Source of the DNA: a virus
DNA length: 64,000 bases
Virus record (IMG/VR): IMGVR_UViG_3300037258_000375
Span: 41,299-105,298 of that record
Direction: 5' to 3' (one strand)
A program made the translations under genes and the position numbers. The notes under the pieces are model-generated. The model saw only the letters and a list, made by a program, of their open reading frames with translations, was not told the origin of the DNA and ran no database searches. This document shows, one piece after another, positions 41,010-54,924 of the stretch. Within the stretch, counting starts at the first letter, position 1. The number at the start of each line of letters is the position of its first letter.

Positions 41010-41361
41010 ATGGATGGACAGATCAGCAAGTACGACCGGGTACGCGGCGGTCTTCATAACGTCGCGATGTTTACCAGGGCGAGCACAGTCAAAGACCGTG
41101 CAAGCCATCACCGGCAAGTCAGAAACGTTCGTCGTCGAGACAGCGCGGTTCGAAGACGAGGGAGATACCATCTTCATTGAGGCGCTCGATGAGAATGGCC
41201 TCACACGGCTCGCACTTCCACCAAAGGTTGCTGCGCTCATTGCTTCCCAGCGTGACAGTTTGACGGCGCGCCGCCGCTCGAAGGCCGCACAGCGAATTGC
41301 CCAGGAGCGCAAGGACCGAGGTGAGCTACCAGGGTTCATGCGCAAGAAGAGTACTGAATAA
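41010..41361 (+). pseudogene. hypothetical gene with apparent +1 frameshift at 41091-41093
   Basis: GGAGG RBS plus MDGQISKY..ASTV continues as KTVQAITG.. in next frame. Confidence 0.55.
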
Positions 41362-47473: not shown

Positions 47474-47689
47474 AAAAATCAGGCAGAACCAGTATATCCC
47501 GAACCTGCACTTGTAATCACAACGGAAGCAATCCGGCCATTCGCATTGAGGGTTACCTCGGTCCCAACCCGGCGAGCCTCCCAGGCACGAGCCGATCTCA
47601 GAAAGATATTCCGGATCAGAGCCGCTTTCCGCCGCCTCTGAATCCGCGCCAAGACCTTCTTGCGCTTGTGCTTCTTTTTGCGATTCTCG

Positions 47690-48050
47690 GGCATAAAAAT
47701 CGAGGCCGGGTATTGCTTTGCATGGAACCCGGCGAACCACGGATAGCTGTTTTTAGGCAGCCATCGGCAACGCATTATCCTCAGCGTTTATTGGTCTGCA
47801 TCCCTTTTGCGGGCGGTAGCAGGGTTCCCGGCACGAAGCTGGAGTTCATTGATCTCGTCGAAACCTTGACGCCCCCACCAAGAAACACTGATTGAGAAAT
47901 GTCTAGCCTGTCCACGAAGCTTTTTGACCAGCTTCGCCCTCGTAGCGCCGGAATCGAACCGACGACGCAATTAGTGCTTCTTGGTGGAGGCGGCGGGAGT
48001 CGAACCCGCGTCCGAAATCAACTTCCTTCAGTGTTGACGTGCGTAACTCA
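47690..48050 (-). ncRNA. ssrA: circularly permuted (two-piece) tmRNA, tag (A)AEDNALPMAA*
   Basis: acceptor piece ending GGUUCGACUCCCGCCGCCUCCACCA (47982) precedes 5' piece GGGGGCG..UUCGAC (47876); G3-U pair; tag at 47785-47753; outer ends approximate. Confidence 0.88.
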
Positions 48051-48075
48051 AATACTGCTCTCCTTTTCTTGAAAA

Positions 48076-48882: not shown

Positions 48883-48911
48883 AATGTACCACGGAATGGG
48901 AATGCGCGCAA
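48883..48911 (-). promoter_or_regulatory. promoter of fMet-Asp-tmRNA-Glu operon
   Basis: TTGCGC-17 bp-(TGG)TACATT. Confidence 0.7.
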
Positions 48912-49608: not shown

Positions 49609-50805
49609 CTACGTCTCAAGAATTTTCCCGATCTTTACGGCGGTCGGATGGTCGCCGATCTCCAGCGAGATCGAGGATGAATCCGTCATCGTCAGCGGAC
49701 CTTCTTGAGCGAATGGTTCATAGACGGCGACATAGCAATTCGACGGCAGCGTGAGGATCACTGAGACATTCGGATTGGTGATGTCCGTGTTCGTCGTCAA
49801 GTTGTAGCAGCTAATCTCCTGCCACAAGAACAATAGCCATGTGCCGTCCGATTGTTGGAGTAGAAGGCTCGAAACAGATGCACCGCTTAACGTATAATTC
49901 AACGCGGTCAAGGCCGGACTCGTGTTGGTCGGAAGCAGTGTGAGCAAGTTTCTCACTGCTCGATATACTGGCTTCACGGTACCATCCCAGCGGATCATGC
50001 CCCAGGCATAGGTCGCATTCGTGAGAGTGGGATCGCTGCCTTCGTCCTGCAACTCGTAGAGATAAGTACGCACGATACCGCGTGAGAAGTTGTTGAGCAG
50101 CAAACGCAGTATGTACTTCGCGGCGGCGATCTCGGAGACTCCGGGCTGTCCACCTGTCTGGTGAATCGCGTTGTGATATCCACTCTCGGTTGCCATGATC
50201 GGCTTGGTTCCGTTAATGGCTTCGAGTTGTGTCGGCTGGGCTGGAGTGCTCGTAAAGCCGACCGTGGGCATGTTTCCAGCCGGGTAGTAGTGCCAGTTCC
50301 CGAAATCGCACTCCATTAGACCCGCCGCCGCAGCGCTTGAAGGATATGCCATCGAAGGAGCGATTACCGGCATCGCAATGCCCTGAGCCATGGTCTTGGC
50401 GAATCCATATAGCGGGGTCTGGTAGGCAGCGAGTACGGCTGGCCAGTTCGCTTCACCGCTCACGTCCATCTCGTTCGGGCCTTCGAGGCATTCGATGCTC
50501 ATTCCGCTCTTCCAATAGAACTGGTTCAATAGGTCGGCGGTGAGTGTACCGAGGTCTGAGCGCGGATCGACGACCGCATCGAACGAGATGCCCTGCCTTG
50601 CGATGAGTGTCCAGGTTGTGAAGAGTGTGTTGTCGTAGTCGTCGTTCAACGTGTGAAGGCCATCTCGCACGTGGACCAGACCGAGGGCCTTGAGTTGTGT
50701 CGCTACGAGAAGAGCATTCCCATAATTCAGATTGAAGTAGTTTAAGTGTGTGTTGACGCCAACACTCTGGAAGAGCGCGGTAGAAGTGGAAAACGGAACC
50801 GGCAT
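49609..50805 (-). CDS. clan GH-A glycoside hydrolase-like protein
   Basis: GVNTH, LG..HVRD, EGPNE, H.Y, ATESGY, YLYEL.D, WG....DG..KP. Confidence 0.8.
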   Translation of the reverse strand: MPVPFSTSTALFQSVGVNTHLNYFNLNYGNALLVATQLKALGLVHVRDGLHTLNDDYDNTLFTTWTLIARQGISFDAVVDPRSDLGTLTADLLNQFYWKSGMSIECLEGPNEMDVSGEANWPAVLAAYQTPLYGFAKTMAQGIAMPVIAPSMAYPSSAAAAGLMECDFGNWHYYPAGNMPTVGFTSTPAQPTQLEAINGTKPIMATESGYHNAIHQTGGQPGVSEIAAAKYILRLLLNNFSRGIVRTYLYELQDEGSDPTLTNATYAWGMIRWDGTVKPVYRAVRNLLTLLPTNTSPALTALNYTLSGASVSSLLLQQSDGTWLLFLWQEISCYNLTTNTDITNPNVSVILTLPSNCYVAVYEPFAQEGPLTMTDSSSISLEIGDHPTAVKIGKILET

Positions 50806-50837
50806 AGGTCACCTCCGATGCCGGTGATTATAGCTTA

Positions 50838-50928
50838 TGGTGCGTCGGACAGGATTCGAACCTGCAATGTCATCAAAGATGATCCAGATTTACAGTCTGG
50901 TAGTGTCCACCGTCTCACCAGCCGACGC
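50838..50928 (-). tRNA. tRNA-Tyr(GUA)
   Basis: loop CUGUAAA; long variable arm; CCA. Confidence 0.9.
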
Positions 50929-51390
50929 ATCTCTTAATCTTGTTTTGTAATTCGCTTTATTCCTTGCTTTGCTTCTGCAAAACTTACATTCGGTCTGAAG
51001 GCCGCGTCGTTTATGTTTATTCTTCGTAAAATGTCCAACCGGAGCAAAATGTTCACCAAGACAGCACCATGCCATTCCCGGAGGATCAACTACTCGCAGG
51101 TGCGCCTGCGAGTCTAAGACTTTACGTTCTCGCAGTGTCTTTTCCAGATGACAACGATGGCACCGCACCCTACATTTTGCTAATTCAATTGTTCTTTTTC
51201 TTTCTCCCCAACTCCAGATCGCAGAACTGATTTTTGTTTTTGGATTGTTGTGATCTAGCTCAAGATTGTCCCATGATCTACAGTCAGTGCAAGGGCCATT
51301 TTCTACGAACCATTTCCGTCGTCTCTTCTTTACGACTTCTTCGTACCACCGCTTCTGCGCGGCGCGCTGTTTTTCAATATCTCTCGCCAT
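50890..51390 (-). CDS. HNH endonuclease inside tRNA cluster, leaderless
   Basis: C..C....LELDH..P..K..EL.KC...C..CH; TATAAT six nt before ATG. Confidence 0.85.
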   Translation of the reverse strand: MARDIEKQRAAQKRWYEEVVKKRRRKWFVENGPCTDCRSWDNLELDHNNPKTKISSAIWSWGERKRTIELAKCRVRCHRCHLEKTLRERKVLDSQAHLRVVDPPGMAWCCLGEHFAPVGHFTKNKHKRRGLQTECKFCRSKARNKANYKTRLRDASAGETVDTTRL

Positions 51391-51432
51391 ATTGTCATTA
51401 TAACAAAACTGGCGGATACTTAACGAACTAAC

Positions 51433-51525
51433 TGGAGGAAGCGGCGAGATTCCAACTCGCGGTGCCGATCTCTCGGACACTCCCGTTTTCAAAACGGGTG
51501 GTTTAACGCACTCACCCACGCTTCC
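51433..51525 (-). tRNA. tRNA-Ser(UGA)
   Basis: loop UUUGAAA; long variable arm; T loop UUGGAAU. Confidence 0.87.
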
Positions 51526-51530
51526 AAACT

Positions 51531-51617
51531 TGGCGGTAGCGACAGGAGTTCAACCTGCAAAGGCTTTCACCTTGTCCCGTTTCGAGCGGGGTGGGCCTAG
51601 CAATGCCCAACGCTACC
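51531..51617 (-). tRNA. tRNA-Ser(CGA)
   Basis: loop CUCGAAA; long variable arm. Confidence 0.87.
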
Positions 51618-51618
51618 G

Positions 51619-51705
51619 TGGCGGGAAGCAGACCACTCGAAGGCCACTCCTTGCGGAGCCATTCGGTTTCCAACCGATGCCGCAGACCTCTGCGGTTTAC
51701 TTCCC
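51619..51705 (-). tRNA. tRNA-Ser(GGA)
   Basis: loop UUGGAAA; long variable arm. Confidence 0.85.
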
Positions 51706-51709
51706 TAAT

Positions 51710-51796
51710 TGGCGGAGAGCCGAGAACACGATTCCCAAACCCGAAGGTTCCATCTGTTTAGCAAACAGCGCCGTCAGCCTCAACGGTTGACTCTCC
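51710..51796 (-). tRNA. tRNA-Ser(GCU)
   Basis: loop UUGCUAA; long variable arm. Confidence 0.85.
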
Positions 51797-51803
51797 ATAC
51801 AAC

Positions 51804-51881
51804 TGGTGCTCCCGGTCGGATTCGAACCGACACTGTCTTCGTTTTGAATGAAGCGCCTCCTGCCGATTGGGCTACGAGAGC
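51804..51881 (-). tRNA. tRNA-Leu(CAA)
   Basis: loop UUCAAAA; short variable arm. Confidence 0.88.
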
Positions 51882-51883
51882 AT

Positions 51884-51962
51884 TGGTGCCTGCGAGGGGA
51901 TTCGAACCCATACTGTTCTGATCCTAAGTCAGACGCCTCCTGCCAAATTGGGCTACGCAGGC
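51884..51962 (-). tRNA. tRNA-Leu(UAG)
   Basis: loop CUUAGGA; short variable arm. Confidence 0.88.
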
Positions 51963-51971
51963 ACATAAAAC

Positions 51972-52049
51972 TGGTACACGGGGTGAGATTTGAACTCACA
52001 CTGCCACGCCCCTCAAGCGTGTGCCTCCTGCCGTTTGGGCTACCCGTGC
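51972..52049 (-). tRNA. tRNA-Leu(GAG)
   Basis: loop UUGAGGG; short variable arm. Confidence 0.88.
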
Positions 52050-52193
52050 ATGGTACTCCGGATGGGATTTGAACCCACACTAACACGGACCTGAACCGTG
52101 TGCCTCCTGCCGTTTGGGCTACCCGTGCATGGTACTCCGGATGGGATTTGAACCCACACTAACACGGACCTGAACCGTGTGCCTCCTGCCGTT
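52018..52193. repeat. 79-bp perfect tandem duplication
   Basis: unit starts recur at 52018, 52097 and 52176. Confidence 0.9.
52051..52128 (-). tRNA. chimeric tRNA-Leu(CAG) from tandem duplication, mismatched acceptor
   Basis: 5' half from Leu(GAG), 3' half from Leu(CAG). Confidence 0.65.
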
Positions 52194-52206
52194 GGGCTAC
52201 CGGAGC
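52130..52206 (-). tRNA. tRNA-Leu(CAG)
   Basis: loop UUCAGGU; CCA. Confidence 0.88.
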
Positions 52207-52216
52207 AAATTAAATT

Positions 52217-52293
52217 TGGACAGCCGAGGGAGAATCGAACTCCCGCATGATCTGATCTGCAATCAGACGCCTTACCGTCTTGGCTATCGGCTG
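52217..52293 (-). tRNA. tRNA-Cys(GCA)
   Basis: loop UUGCAGA; U73-CCA. Confidence 0.9.
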
Positions 52294-52294
52294 T

Positions 52295-52371
52295 TGGTAC
52301 CCGTCGAGGGATTCCAACCCCCATCCAAGCCGTCTTAAGCGACTCCGCTCTTGCAATTGGCGTACACGGGC
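52295..52371 (-). tRNA. tRNA-Leu(UAA)
   Basis: loop CUUAAGA; T loop UUGGAAU; CCA. Confidence 0.82.
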
Positions 52372-52378
52372 ACAAACT

Positions 52379-52404
52379 AAAAACCCCCCGAATCATCGGA
52401 GGGC
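52379..52404 (-). terminator. intrinsic terminator of attenuator 2
   Basis: GCCCUCCGA-UGAU-UCGGGGGGU followed by UUUU. Confidence 0.85.
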
Positions 52405-52430
52405 TGGAAACTTTCGACCGTGCTCAGTCG

Positions 52431-52493
52431 CTAGTCAACCCAACCCTCAGAAGAGGAGAGATACAGGCACGAACTGAGTGACAAGGTCTTCAC
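52431..52493 (-). CDS. leaderless attenuator leader peptide MKTLSLSSCLYLSSSEGWVD
   Basis: 12 consecutive Leu/Ser/Cys/Tyr codons; overlaps antiterminator GAGGGUUGG. Confidence 0.82.
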   Translation of the reverse strand: MKTLSLSSCLYLSSSEGWVD

Positions 52494-52500
52494 GAAAATG

Positions 52501-52529
52501 ATGCTCTCACAAATCTATTTTGCTGTCAA
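52501..52529 (-). promoter_or_regulatory. promoter of Leu/Ser/Cys/Tyr tRNA operon
   Basis: TTGACA-17 bp-(TG.)GAGCAT, 7 nt before GTG. Confidence 0.65.
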
Positions 52530-52958
52530 CGCCAATTTTCTGCGCTCCAGCCATTGCTCAAGAGTCAAGCCGCCTGGATGGTCCGGATCGTAATGCATCC
52601 ATACAGTCCATCCTCCTTTGGCTTTTTCGGGAAATGGGTGGCACGGGCATTCCGGCGAGAGTATATGCAGACATGACGGAACACGCTGTCCATCTATCTC
52701 GATCAAAGGAACCACGTGATTACATCCGGTGCCGTCGTCATCCTCACTGCGAACAACGCCCCAATGTTGCATCACTGCACCTGTGGCACTCTCGTCCTTG
52801 AATTCGGCGGCGGCGGCGGCGGACCCGGAATTTCATGCACATGCACATCGTGGCCCGCGTAGCGAAGATCGCCGAGCTTGCGTTTACATGCCTGCCCCTC
52901 GTCTGCGCCGCAGCAAGGGCACCAGAGGGATAACCGATTGGGTACGTACCGGGAGTGT

Positions 52959-53210
52959 TCATCCATTTTGTTTTTTCGCCTTCGTCAGTTCATCGAGTGC
53001 CTGCACCAAATCTTCCATCGAGACCGGCTCAGAATCTTCGGCAAGATAGGCGTCGATCTCTGTCTCTGCTTCCTCGCCGGAACAGTTGACGACGTGACCT
53101 TCAAGCGCGCTCTGTCCCACAAAGAAAACACTGCACGTGTTGTCGTCGATATCCTTGATTGCCGTGACATACTGTGCAGCGATTCGGAAGCCTTTGACCA
53201 AGTGCAGCAT
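52959..53210 (-). CDS. small acidic hypothetical protein
   Basis: coupled to downstream small ORFs. Confidence 0.5.
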   Translation of the reverse strand: MLHLVKGFRIAAQYVTAIKDIDDNTCSVFFVGQSALEGHVVNCSGEEAETEIDAYLAEDSEPVSMEDLVQALDELTKAKKQNG

Positions 53211-53261
53211 GATGCCAATCTACACCCAGCGGTCACGGTCGGCAATGATTTTGGTGATACC

Positions 53262-53642
53262 ATGGCTCCGATGCCGCAAGAATCAAAAGCTGAAAGAGAA
53301 GCGTGGACCGCACTTGTCGAAGGCCGCGCGCCCAAGAAAGAACCGAAGTACCACAATGAACGTAAGGGCAAATACGCCTCTGGCTACGAGGCCGAGGTCG
53401 CGGCCAAGCTCTGGACACTTCTCGAAGCTGGCAAGATCGAGGGGCTCCGCGAGCAAGTTCCCTTCGAGCTTGTGCCGCGTCGCGGCAAGATGGGGCCGGT
53501 GATCTACGTCGCTGATTTCACGTTTTACGAGGACGGGAAGTGGCGCGTCTGCGACGCAAAAGGTTTCGCGCACAATCGGGTTTACATGCTCAAAAAACGG
53601 ATGATGTACCTCGTCCACGAGATCGAGATTGAGGAACTGTAA
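53262..53642 (+). CDS. DUF1064-family endonuclease
   Basis: KY.N, S..EA, L.EQV.FEL, YVADF.F, DAKG, Y.LKK.MM. Confidence 0.85.
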   Translation: MAPMPQESKAEREAWTALVEGRAPKKEPKYHNERKGKYASGYEAEVAAKLWTLLEAGKIEGLREQVPFELVPRRGKMGPVIYVADFTFYEDGKWRVCDAKGFAHNRVYMLKKRMMYLVHEIEIEEL

Positions 53643-53685
53643 TTTCTCCTTGCGTTCGCCGATACTCTGCGCTAGTCTCTTCTGC

Positions 53686-54924
53686 ATGGCCGCAATTAAA
53701 CCACTTCTCATTATTTCAGATGCAGTCTCGGCCCCTACAGGGCTCGCCCGGATCACCCGCGATCTCTCAACACGTATTCACCAGAATCTCAAGGATGTTT
53801 ACCGTGTCGCCACGTTTGGGTACGGCGCGCCCGGATCATGCAGGTTCGGTTTTACACAATACGCTGCGAATGACGTTGACAACTTCGTTTTGGGTCAGTT
53901 GCCCGAGGTGTGGCATGACTTCGCCGGACAGGAGCAAGGGGTCGTGCTGTGCATTTGGGACCCGAGCCGCCTCGGCTGGCTCTCCACACCACATACGAGT
54001 GACTTCCTCAAAGATTTGAAGTATCAGGCTCTCCGGGTCTGGCTCGAACGCGCTCCTTTTAAGAAATGGATTTACGCCCCCGTAGATGCGGAAGGACCGA
54101 ATAACCGGCTTACTTTTTCGATCATGAAGTCGCTGTTTGGATTCGACCGCATTCTTGCCTATAGCGCGTGGGGAGCGGGAGTGATCGAACGCACGATGAG
54201 TACAGGCGAGGCACGCAGTCGCAACCTCACTTCACTACCTCACGGAATCGATGGAGGCGTGTTCTCTCCATCTCCGGATCGTTCTCTGGCACGCTCTGTG
54301 TTTAACAGCATCACGGGAGCGACATCGATCATTACGAAATACAAAGAGATCGAGGCAGACGAGGTGCTCGTCGGCATCGTCGCAACCAACCAAGCACGCA
54401 AGGATTGGGCACTCGGTATCGAGACCGCCGCGATACTGTCAAAAGAGATGAAGGTGCGGTTGTGGATTCACACGGACGCCCTAGCGCGCAACTGGGATAT
54501 TCTCGGCCTTCTTATCGATCATGGGATGCTCGGAGAGCAGACTGTCTTGTCGAGCGGGTACATCGCGGATGAACAAATGGCCGAGGCTTATTCTGCTTGC
54601 GATGTCACTTTGGGTATCGGACCGGAAGGTTTTGGCTATCCGATTTTCGAATCGATCTTCTGCGGAACTCCATGCGTCCACGGTAACTACGGCGGCGCTC
54701 CAGAACTCCTGACACCTGAGCTTTTAGTGACACCCATCGCCTTCCATAAAGAGGGACCTTATTCATCGAAGCGGCCCGTCTATGCTCCGGAGGATTTCGC
54801 CGCCGCAGTTAGAGGCGTAATCGGGAAGCGCGCCAGTCATAACGCTCAACTCGATTGGAAGCACCTATGGCCGCGTTGGGAAGCGTGGTTCCGGCAGGCT
54901 GCCGGTGATCTGGAGGAAGCGTGA
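53686..54924 (+). CDS. GT-B (GT4-like) glycosyltransferase, leaderless
   Basis: TGLAR, PHGID..F, NQ.RK, Y.ACDV, EGFGYPIFES..CGTP.V. Confidence 0.88.
   Translation: MAAIKPLLIISDAVSAPTGLARITRDLSTRIHQNLKDVYRVATFGYGAPGSCRFGFTQYAANDVDNFVLGQLPEVWHDFAGQEQGVVLCIWDPSRLGWLSTPHTSDFLKDLKYQALRVWLERAPFKKWIYAPVDAEGPNNRLTFSIMKSLFGFDRILAYSAWGAGVIERTMSTGEARSRNLTSLPHGIDGGVFSPSPDRSLARSVFNSITGATSIITKYKEIEADEVLVGIVATNQARKDWALGIETAAILSKEMKVRLWIHTDALARNWDILGLLIDHGMLGEQTVLSSGYIADEQMAEAYSACDVTLGIGPEGFGYPIFESIFCGTPCVHGNYGGAPELLTPELLVTPIAFHKEGPYSSKRPVYAPEDFAAAVRGVIGKRASHNAQLDWKHLWPRWEAWFRQAAGDLEEA

Follow-up and report, generated by a model that had tools for sequence, protein, structure and literature searches.

A probable leader-peptide attenuator in front of a phage array of leucine, serine, cysteine, and tyrosine tRNA genes

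The locus described here lies in a 64,000-nt stretch of DNA from an uncultured soil phage (the window), which makes up the right-hand 64 kb of a virus record of 105,298 bp (IMG/VR record IMGVR_UViG_3300037258_000375, positions 41,299 to 105,298; G+C 54%). The window holds 30 RNA genes detectable with ARAGORN, all on the minus strand, comprising 29 transfer RNAs (tRNAs) and a permuted transfer-messenger RNA (tmRNA). Our subject is an element of ~160 bp that precedes one block of these genes, an array of 12 tRNAs (six Leu, one Cys, four Ser, and one Tyr) representing 11 anticodon classes. Default ARAGORN and Rfam find nine of the 12, between 52371 and 50838, while the other three, Ser(cga), Ser(gct), and Ser(gga), are class II tRNAs that escape default ARAGORN and Rfam at E <= 1 and are recovered by relaxed ARAGORN or by folding. 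The initial annotation of this DNA, which was made from its letters alone, was thus right in counting 12 Leu/Ser/Cys/Tyr tRNAs.

The features of the leader are listed in Table 1. A promoter with a 17-nt spacer and an extended -10 is followed, 7 nt past the -10, by the GTG of a 20-codon open reading frame (ORF) without a Shine-Dalgarno sequence, and the promoter geometry suggests that transcription would start at or beside this GTG. Codons 4-15 of the ORF are 12 uninterrupted Leu, Ser, Cys, and Tyr codons. A spacer of 26 nt separates the ORF stop from the hairpin of an intrinsic terminator, the stem of which ends 11 nt before tRNA-Leu(taa). As no promoter fits between the terminator and the first tRNA, the array must be reached through the terminator. 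The promoter, the coordinates and every codon of the ORF, the codon run, and the terminator had all been described correctly in the initial annotation, and all of these elements fall inside the span that it gave, 52295-52529, although that span also takes in the first tRNA gene, which is not part of the leader. Between the codon run and the terminator, the RNA can be divided into region 1 (the end of the run), region 2 (a G-rich strand), a middle hairpin that has the stop codon within its 5' strand and stacks under the antiterminator in masked-ribosome folds, and region 3 (which overlaps the 5' arm of the terminator). In the modeled structures, pairing of region 1 with region 2 would serve as an anti-antiterminator, formed when no ribosome is stalled.

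Table 1. Positions in the window of the leader, the tRNA array, and neighboring features
Feature	Position	Strand	Basis or remark
-35 hexamer, TTGACA	52524..52529	(-)	identical in 13/13 homologous leaders; sequence upstream unrelated
-10 hexamer, GAGCAT, preceded by TGA (extended -10 type)	52501..52506	(-)	17 nt past the -35
Leader ORF, GTG to TAG, 20 codons, MKTLSLSSCLYLSSSEGWVD (GTG AAG ACC TTG TCA CTC AGT TCG TGC CTG TAT CTC TCC TCT TCT GAG GGT TGG GTT GAC TAG)	52431..52493	(-)	homologous ORF in all relatives
Putative sensor run, codons 4-15 (TTG TCA CTC AGT TCG TGC CTG TAT CTC TCC TCT TCT)	52449..52484	(-)	
Region 1, UCCUC, end of run	52453..52457	(-)	minimum-free-energy fold; pairs with GAGGG of region 2
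Region 2, putative G-rich antiterminator strand, GAGGGUUGGG, codons 16-19	52439..52448	(-)	duplex search; 9-bp register checked
Middle hairpin, between regions 2 and 3	52409..52436	(-)	masked-ribosome folds
Region 3, UCCAGCCCUC, overlaps 5' arm of terminator	52399..52408	(-)	duplex and fold computation
Intrinsic terminator hairpin, GCCCUCCGA-UGAU-UCGGGGGGU	52383..52404	(-)	-15.9 kcal/mol
U-rich tail, UUUUAGUUUGU	52372..52382	(-)	
First tRNA, Leu(taa)	52295-52371	(-)	
tRNA genes 1-7: Leu(taa), Cys(gca), Leu(cag), Leu(cag), Leu(gag), Leu(tag), Leu(caa)	51804..52371	(-)	ARAGORN and Rfam
tRNA gene 8, Ser(gct)	51710-51796	(-)	relaxed ARAGORN
tRNA gene 9, Ser(gga)	about 51619-51705	(-)	class II cloverleaf fold, anticodon GGA
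tRNA gene 10, Ser(cga)	51531-51617	(-)	relaxed ARAGORN
tRNA gene 11, Ser(tga)	51433-51525	(-)	default ARAGORN
HNH endonuclease ORF, between Ser(tga) and Tyr	50890..51390	(-)	PHROG 4234, E = 8e-20
tRNA gene 12, Tyr(gta)	50838..50928	(-)	ARAGORN and Rfam
398-aa protein gene	49609-50805	(-)	directly after tRNA-Tyr
Promoter-like site, TTGAGA-16-TAGAAT	49619-49592	(-)	overlaps end of 398-aa gene
Strong terminator after 9-codon ORF	49491-49472		
Promoter of Met/Asp block, TTGCGC-17-TACATT, TGG before the -10	48883-48911	(-)	ends 6 nt before +1 of tRNA-Met
Permuted (two-piece) tmRNA	47662-48074	(-)	
Upstream 86-codon ORF	ends at 52515		end lies within the promoter
Glycosyltransferase gene	53629-54921		divergently transcribed

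Relatives of this locus were found via the divergently transcribed glycosyltransferase gene, which yielded 160 loci of 30-67% identity on viral and metagenome contigs that, to judge from the record names, are apparently mostly from soil and peat. Two scans with patterns built on the promoter and ORF found the known contigs again and contributed L167/L173, L176, and L171 as new ones. In all of the relatives that carry tRNAs to the left of the glycosyltransferase gene, the array has an identical order, namely Leu(taa), usually Cys(gca), and then further Leu, Ser, and Tyr genes, and in each of them tRNA-Leu(taa) is directly preceded by a short ORF with a TTGACA promoter in front of it and a terminator behind it. 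There are 13 distinct leaders in total, including that of the window (Table 2). All 13 exhibit the TTGACA hexamer, a 17-nt spacer, a -10 of the form NANNNT, and a start codon 7-16 nt further on that lacks a Shine-Dalgarno sequence, while protein genes of the phage do carry one (e.g., GGAGGTG ahead of the 398-aa gene). All 13 likewise carry a GC-rich hairpin (-13.5 to -20.3 kcal/mol) with a U-run, and the distance from its end to the first tRNA is 1-13 nt in 11 leaders, 42 nt in L002, and 48 nt in L171. The alignment is invariant at TTGACA, at the A (position 2) and T (position 6) of the -10, at the TG of the start codon together with the next base, in part of the terminator, and in the U-run. 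Upstream of the -35, the sequences of different lineages are unrelated and the upstream genes differ. From these contigs, the leader family would appear to be widespread in soil and peat viromes.

Table 2. Leader peptides of the 13 distinct leaders, with the G-rich and terminator strands compared in the window, L006, L113, and L116
Leader	Leader peptide	G-rich strand	Terminator arm and flank
Window	MKTLSLSSCLYLSSSEGWVD	GAGGGUUGG	CCAGCCCUC
L105	MKTLSLSSCLYLSSSEGWDD		
L005	MKTLCLSSLSSYSSLLSGSGGS		
L167	MKTVCLSSLSSYSSLLSGGGGS		
L014	MKFLALSSLSLYCLSSAGMGASM		
L001	MKLCLSSSRLYSSLLRMGSPFLDRGI		
L002	MKQVLSSSSLSLCSLLYSYGGRV		
L171	MKQLSLSSTLSSNATPQTKTYLRGPRYGEGSV		
L006 / L111	MKNLLSNSYCLSSLSLSGGSLARWRGI	GGGGGUUCG	CGAACCCC
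L115	MKNLSLSSYCLLSLSLGAGSLARWRGI		
L113 / L114	MRTLSSLSCLYLSSLSLGAGRCVRWRGI	GGGUCGGUG	UACCGACCC
L116	MKNFSLSLYCSLSSLSLSGGSVRTRWRGI	GGAUCGGUG	CAUCGAUCC
L176	MKNLCLSLSSYCSLSLSGREAMG		

Other searches gave little further. Neither megablast nor blastn matched the region to any of 50,697 phage records, an exact leader word search found no relatives, and the 86-aa and 398-aa neighbor proteins have no relatives among the viral contigs. The glycosyltransferase gene has only remote matches among cultured phages, which give no pointer to a host. A scan of 596 Gb of prokaryote genomes for the leader pattern gave nine chance matches and no true leader. Chance matches to the search patterns in general have 2-8 L/S/C/Y (Leu, Ser, Cys, or Tyr) codons of 14 and no accompanying tRNAs, and serve as a negative control. 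A search of sequencing runs listed one soil-metagenome DNA run with this DNA, which may be the very run that the record came from, and no RNA run.

The codon run stands out both within its own genome and across the family. In the six frames of the 105-kb genome, no L/S/C/Y run is longer than its 12 codons (the runner-up has 8), none of 60 second-order Markov genomes reached 12, and base shuffling of the window run leaves a mean of 5.5 in-set codons compared to the 12 observed (p = 0.0002). These four amino acids account for 19.5% of the codons in the phage's long ORFs. Codon statistics for the family cover the first ten leaders, as L167, L171, and L176 came later. At codons 4-17 of these ten, 127 of 140 codons are L/S/C/Y in frame, versus 49 of 130 in the +1 frame and 32 of 130 in the +2 frame, and every leader exceeds shuffles of its own bases (p <= 0.00035). 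Of Phe and Pro, both of which would be expected from a strand that is simply rich in pyrimidines, the former occurs once among the 140 core codons and the latter not at all. The initial annotation had named homologous leaders lacking the ORF or the codon bias as evidence that would speak against it; the open frame is kept in 13 of 13, and the bias is as just described.

These observations also bear upon the simplest alternative, namely that the region is a non-coding RNA element or a plain terminator region at the 3' end of an upstream small-ORF operon, in which the leader ORF is incidental. The 86-codon ORF does end within the promoter, and the hairpin could end its transcript too; moreover, the whole-leader fold of the window has a z-score of only -1.9 and there is no Rfam match. 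However, a start codon at a fixed short distance from a conserved promoter, and an open frame behind it, are both kept in 13 lineages with differing upstream genes, the bias is frame-specific, substitutions are mainly synonymous, and the run is the longest in the genome. We consider this alternative very improbable.

We compared the leader codons with the identities of the array by assigning each codon to its cognate anticodon through Watson-Crick or G:U pairing, using as the null the same residues with the phage's codon usage. The window leader samples nine of the 11 anticodon classes in its array, in line with the earlier remark that nearly every isoacceptor is represented. All of the first ten leaders contain at least one Cys codon (always TGC) and at least one Tyr codon (always TAT), with averages of ~5 Leu and 6-7 Ser codons, while the arrays have 3-6 Leu, 4 Ser, 1 Cys, and 1 Tyr genes. 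With 12-16 codons, the ten leaders cover 9-11 of the 11 classes, which exceeds the null mean (7.4-8.1) in ten of ten; the P values of individual leaders range from 0.002 to 0.22. The later L176 leader covers 11 of 11. The only lineage that departs from this pattern is L171, which belongs to a 134-kb virus with terminal repeats (G001). No tRNA-Cys is present among the ~30 tRNAs of this virus, its array retains just five genes (Leu(taa), Leu(caa), Ser(gct), Ser(cga), and Tyr), and its leader has no Cys codon and only 8 in-set codons among the 14 core codons. The joint loss of tRNA-Cys and the Cys codon supports the match, although as a single event it is suggestive only. The initial annotation suggested looking in related phages for leader codons that co-vary with tRNA content; the co-loss of Cys agrees with such co-variation, but it was seen in one lineage only. 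The five array tRNAs of G001 (L177 = G001:C1:52000-71300) are separated by non-tRNA inserts of 108-437 nt and half of the L171 run is replaced by NATPQTKT, and this copy may be a decaying version of the system.

It could be argued that such a leader is translation-coupled but senses only the overall capacity for translation, as affected by ribosome loading or speed, by antibiotics, or by host shut-off, its L/S/C/Y content being secondary and imposed, for example, by the pyrimidine-rich strand needed to pair with region 2. Only about codons 4-11 are placed so that a stall frees region 2, the late codons of the run double as region 1 of the switch, and an inducible tRNA array in Anabaena answers general translation stress (PMC8421152). 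On the other hand, a pyrimidine-rich strand would yield Phe and Pro as well, and neither these two residues nor the other reading frames follow that expectation. In addition, Cys and Tyr codons are present in every full-array leader, Cys is lost alongside tRNA-Cys, and isoacceptor coverage lies above the expectation from phage codon usage. Hence, an attenuator indifferent to codon identity seems unlikely.

The manner in which the leaders diverge is equally informative. Residue order in the run varies by lineage, while composition is kept. Between the window and L105, the ORF differs by six synonymous codon changes and one non-synonymous change, plus GTG versus ATG at the start, whereas the post-stop spacer (26-31 nt) is identical at just 9 of 31 positions. 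L006 and L115 differ by six amino-acid replacements, four of which fall within the run (L>S, S>L, N>S, and S>L) and all end in-set; the other two (S>G and G>A) fall in the G-rich codons past the run. Judged from these comparisons, this is the pattern that would be expected if the amino-acid class, rather than the peptide sequence, is selected. The N-terminus MK(T/N/Q) is conserved, and the peptides of L006, L111, L115, L113, and L116 all end in RWRGI-stop, with DRGI in L001. The RWRGI codons form the 5' strand of the middle hairpin, and so they may be conserved at the RNA level; a peptide-level role is also possible.

Such conserved termini, together with the purifying selection on the amino-acid sequence between close relatives, are what would be expected of a self-contained small gene encoding a functional peptide of 20-33 residues (e.g., membrane or signal-like) with its own promoter and terminator, in which case tRNA production would depend solely on constitutive leaky read-through or on transcription from upstream. 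Several features are difficult to reconcile with such a gene, which we regard as improbable. Composition is the conserved property, whereas Cys is found at position 4, 5, 9, 10, or 13 and is absent in L171, so that there is no fixed motif and no lipobox Cys at a set position after a hydrophobic core, as in lipoproteins and signal peptides. In most relatives, the 1-13-nt gap between terminator and tRNA has no promoter, which makes the tRNAs dependent upon passage through the terminator. Furthermore, the G-rich codons that follow the run change in concert with the terminator arm, and the match to tRNA identity would be left unexplained. Overall, the three alternatives are weaker because none of them explains a codon content that is both frame-specific and identity-matched.

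The pairing proposed in the initial annotation between the end of the ORF and a strand overlapping the 5' arm of the terminator is found in the window as a 9-bp duplex (strands in Table 2) of -18.7 kcal/mol, compared to -11.0 +/- 2.4 for dinucleotide shuffles (p = 0.01). In all ten of the first leaders, no other part of the leader pairs as well with the 5' arm of the terminator as the G-rich stretch just past the run (codons 14-23), and in two of the three added ones the best partner likewise lies just past the run; in L171, which has a longer ORF, it is located at the ORF end (codons 29-33). Against 500 dinucleotide shuffles, the duplex reaches p <= 0.012 in six of the ten, p = 0.06-0.56 in the other four, and p = 0.10-0.23 in the three added leaders. 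The partner strands change together across the lineages of the window, L006, L113, and L116 (Table 2). Because the MAFFT register is off by one among L006, L113, and L116, column-wise covariation of the antiterminator was not counted, and it was judged instead by the per-sequence duplex energies against shuffles. An RNAalifold consensus of one group (L006, L111, L115, L113, and L116) has three helices, consisting of a 1:2 hairpin in which the run's end pairs with the first part of the G-rich stretch, a middle hairpin with compensatory changes whose 5' strand is the final ORF codons and stop, and the terminator. In this consensus, 7 of 33 pairs hold their pairing via two-sided changes, and the antiterminator extends the middle hairpin downward.

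When free, the window leader is predicted to be bistable, with a terminator state at -42.2 kcal/mol and an antiterminator state at -41.9 kcal/mol, and a modeled ribosome is sufficient to tip this balance. Masking of nt 1-29, which places the A site at codon 6, yields the antiterminator as the minimum-energy fold, with the terminator absent, while masking of nt 46-74 (ribosome at the stop codon) makes the terminator the minimum-energy fold. The mutually exclusive hairpins anticipated in the initial annotation are therefore found in the window, and they switch in the predicted direction. The computed probability of the terminator stays at 0.0 when the stall falls on codons 2-7, rises to 0.6-0.8 on codons 8-12, and reaches 1.0 on codon 13 and all later positions up to the stop. 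L006 and L113 switch like the window at equilibrium. If the 3' arm of the terminator has not yet been made, its 5' arm is sequestered during stalls in the run (P 0.7-0.9) and freed when the ribosome is later or at the stop (0.0-0.3), which holds in L105, L005, L014, L115, and L116 and is weak in L001 and L002.

From the codon content, the synteny, and the modeled folds, we consider it probable that the element is a ribosome-mediated (leader-peptide) transcription attenuator gating the phage tRNA operon; the attenuation logic put forward in the initial annotation is supported both by the 13 distinct homologous leaders and by the folds. Transcription would begin at or beside the GTG, directed by the TTGACA-17-GAGCAT promoter, and a ribosome would load on the leaderless 5' end and translate the 20-codon ORF as a test, its codons 4-15 presenting approximately one codon per downstream isoacceptor. 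If decoding is fast, the ribosome would pass over region 2 to the stop codon inside the middle hairpin, leaving region 3 free to pair with region 4 as the terminator, and RNA polymerase would stop in the U-run ~10 nt before tRNA-Leu(taa). If any cognate aminoacyl-tRNA is short, the ribosome would stall within the run, at one of its first seven or eight codons, covering region 1 and leaving region 2 free; a 9-bp helix of regions 2 and 3, which stacks on the middle hairpin, would then block the terminator, and the polymerase would read into the 12 tRNA genes and probably the next gene as well. Fresh tRNAs would relieve the stall and so place their own supply under negative feedback, with the tRNAs of four amino acids being the sensed quantity and the product alike. 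In this scheme, the transcription start, translation of the ORF, terminator efficiency, the regulatory outcome, and the natural trigger are inferred, while the sequence elements and their conservation, the codon bias with its match to the array, and the alternative pairings are seen in the sequences and their computed folds. Candidates for the trigger include decay or cleavage of host tRNAs, late-gene demand, and starvation. Of these, tRNA depletion would seem a more sensible signal than amino-acid starvation, since starvation stalls the ribosome too, yet extra tRNA would not cure it. We put forward more tentatively, as something that may well be so but that we do not yet favor, the idea of a roster-type sensor, in which the loss of any one of about eleven host tRNAs would turn on the whole replacement set, which would later shut itself off. 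If true, this would constitute a self-regulating phage countermeasure to tRNA depletion, whether caused by an anticodon nuclease of the host or by tRNA decay that the phage induces, for example, and also a natural read-out of decoding speed with multiple inputs.

A number of observations weigh against attenuation. The antiterminator is weak in L001 and L002 (p = 0.14 and 0.56, respectively), and the terminator is still favored at equilibrium under a modeled stall in L001, L002, L005, L014, and L105; a stall clearly abolishes it at equilibrium only in the window, L006, and L113. For that part of the family, the mechanism consequently needs a kinetic (co-transcriptional) argument. The last four or five codons of the run are too near region 2 to act as sensors. 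Array composition is near-constant, which leaves the co-variation test resting on one lineage, and the homologs share ancestry, so that the P values of individual leaders are non-independent and describe maintenance rather than independent origin. With respect to translation, the ORFs of the window and L005 begin with GTG, six leaders have a predicted 5' untranslated region of 2-9 nt rather than 0, and efficient initiation without a Shine-Dalgarno sequence is assumed. Finally, the phage's other tRNA blocks have no such leader.

Inspection of the regions upstream of those other blocks in the window (Met/Asp, Thr/Pro/Arg, and Trp/Met/Ile) revealed no leader ORF with a terminator, and the regions ahead of the blocks other than Met/Asp follow protein genes. 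The Met/Asp block has its own promoter, which is conserved in the window, L001, L014, and L173 (TTGCGC or TTGCAC, 17 nt, and a (TGG)TACATT-like -10) and has neither an ORF nor a terminator between it and the tRNA. By contrast with this block, the leader and terminator before the Leu/Ser/Cys/Tyr block are an added control and not a generic feature, while the distance between the Met/Asp promoter and its tRNA makes the promoter-to-start spacing of the leader plausible. A promoter-like site overlapping the end of the 398-aa gene is followed by a 9-codon ORF (MGMDNDTND) and a strong terminator, ahead of a 164-aa gene, tRNA-Met, and tRNA-Asp. We considered this ORF as a second, Met/Asp-matched leader and rejected it, given that it has no counterpart in L001, L014, L173, or G001 and that the Met block has its own promoter.

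Several other features of the array and its surroundings deserve mention. The six Leu tRNAs of the window are 77-79 nt long with a short variable arm, compared with 83-90 nt for the Leu tRNAs of L001 and L005, and tRNA-Leu(taa) of the window scores just 29.4 bits. The HNH endonuclease ORF is a passenger outside the switch, and its TAA stop falls in the anticodon loop of tRNA-Tyr (cuGUAaa). A 60%-identical homolog occupies the same array site in L006, L002 has a different insert of 490 nt, and L001, L005, L014, L105, L111, and L115 have no insertion there; by its sequence and distribution, it looks like a homing endonuclease that moves among tRNA arrays. The 398-aa gene directly after tRNA-Tyr, which has the Shine-Dalgarno sequence GGAGGTG, is probably co-transcribed with the array. 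Its product has no Pfam or PHROG match, and by eye its NEMD and TESG motifs are reminiscent of a TIM-barrel glycoside hydrolase. A permuted tmRNA also lies within the tRNA regions of L001 (202-617) and L005 (2303-2728), and the tag is AEDNALPMAA in the window and L001 and AEPFALPMAA in L005.

Phage tRNA genes are usually viewed as a fixed supplement that serves codon-usage matching or escape from tRNA-cleaving defenses, and the control of their expression has been little studied. If the attenuator operates as proposed, phages would gauge host decoding capacity per codon class and make tRNAs on demand, the logic of trp and his would be reused with tRNA as both signal and product, and leaderless translation would be able to drive an attenuator. 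The element might also find use as a reporter of isoacceptor-specific decoding speed.

The same working principle is established for the trp, his, leu, thr, and ilvGMEDA attenuators, among whose leaders ilvGMEDA senses Ile, Leu, and Val and thr senses Thr and Ile, with trpL, hisL, leuL, and pheL as further examples. Like these enterobacterial attenuators, the phage element has a promoter-proximal short ORF, close to the predicted transcription start and enriched in cognate regulatory codons. It also has four regions that can pair as 1:2, 2:3, and 3:4, so placed that ribosome position would decide between mutually exclusive antiterminator and terminator; its intrinsic terminator lies immediately ahead of the genes under control, and it would respond to several amino acids instead of a single one. 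In contrast, the enterobacterial attenuators control biosynthetic enzymes, whereas the phage element controls tRNAs, such that the product itself would relieve the stall; it covers four amino acids with approximately one codon per isoacceptor instead of the homopolymeric run of the enterobacterial leaders; and it is phage-encoded with a (nearly) leaderless start and no Shine-Dalgarno sequence. An aminoacyl-tRNA synthetase operon, pheST of E. coli (pheM leader), is also regulated by leader-peptide attenuation, but this is a protein-coding operon and one amino acid is sensed, as opposed to tRNA genes and four amino acids here. T-box riboswitches similarly use a terminator/antiterminator switch to read the state of a specific tRNA pool, although they recognize uncharged tRNA itself by means of a specifier codon and the T-box sequence and need no translation, while the phage sensor would be a translated ORF. 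Rfam cmscan of 50000-53500 at E <= 1 gave no match to a leader family (Leu_leader, His_leader, Thr_leader, Trp_leader, and others) or to the T-box; it returned nine tRNA matches and three weak, sub-threshold matches to the Plastid-ycf2 5'-UTR (untranslated region) family opposite tRNA genes, which are due to chance. A full-text literature search found no account of leader-peptide attenuation of tRNA genes, which agrees with the initial annotation, to which no description of such attenuators for tRNA operons was known. The nearest published case is the trn array of Anabaena sp. PCC 7120, a supernumerary and horizontally mobile array that is silent by default and turned on when translation is impaired (PMC8421152), under the control of promoter direct repeats bound by the RHH repressor TrcR (PMC10272220). 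The main text of these two papers contains no word starting with "attenuat" or "leader". The Anabaena array is cellular and controlled at the level of its promoter, whereas the array described here is phage-borne and would be controlled by an attenuator.

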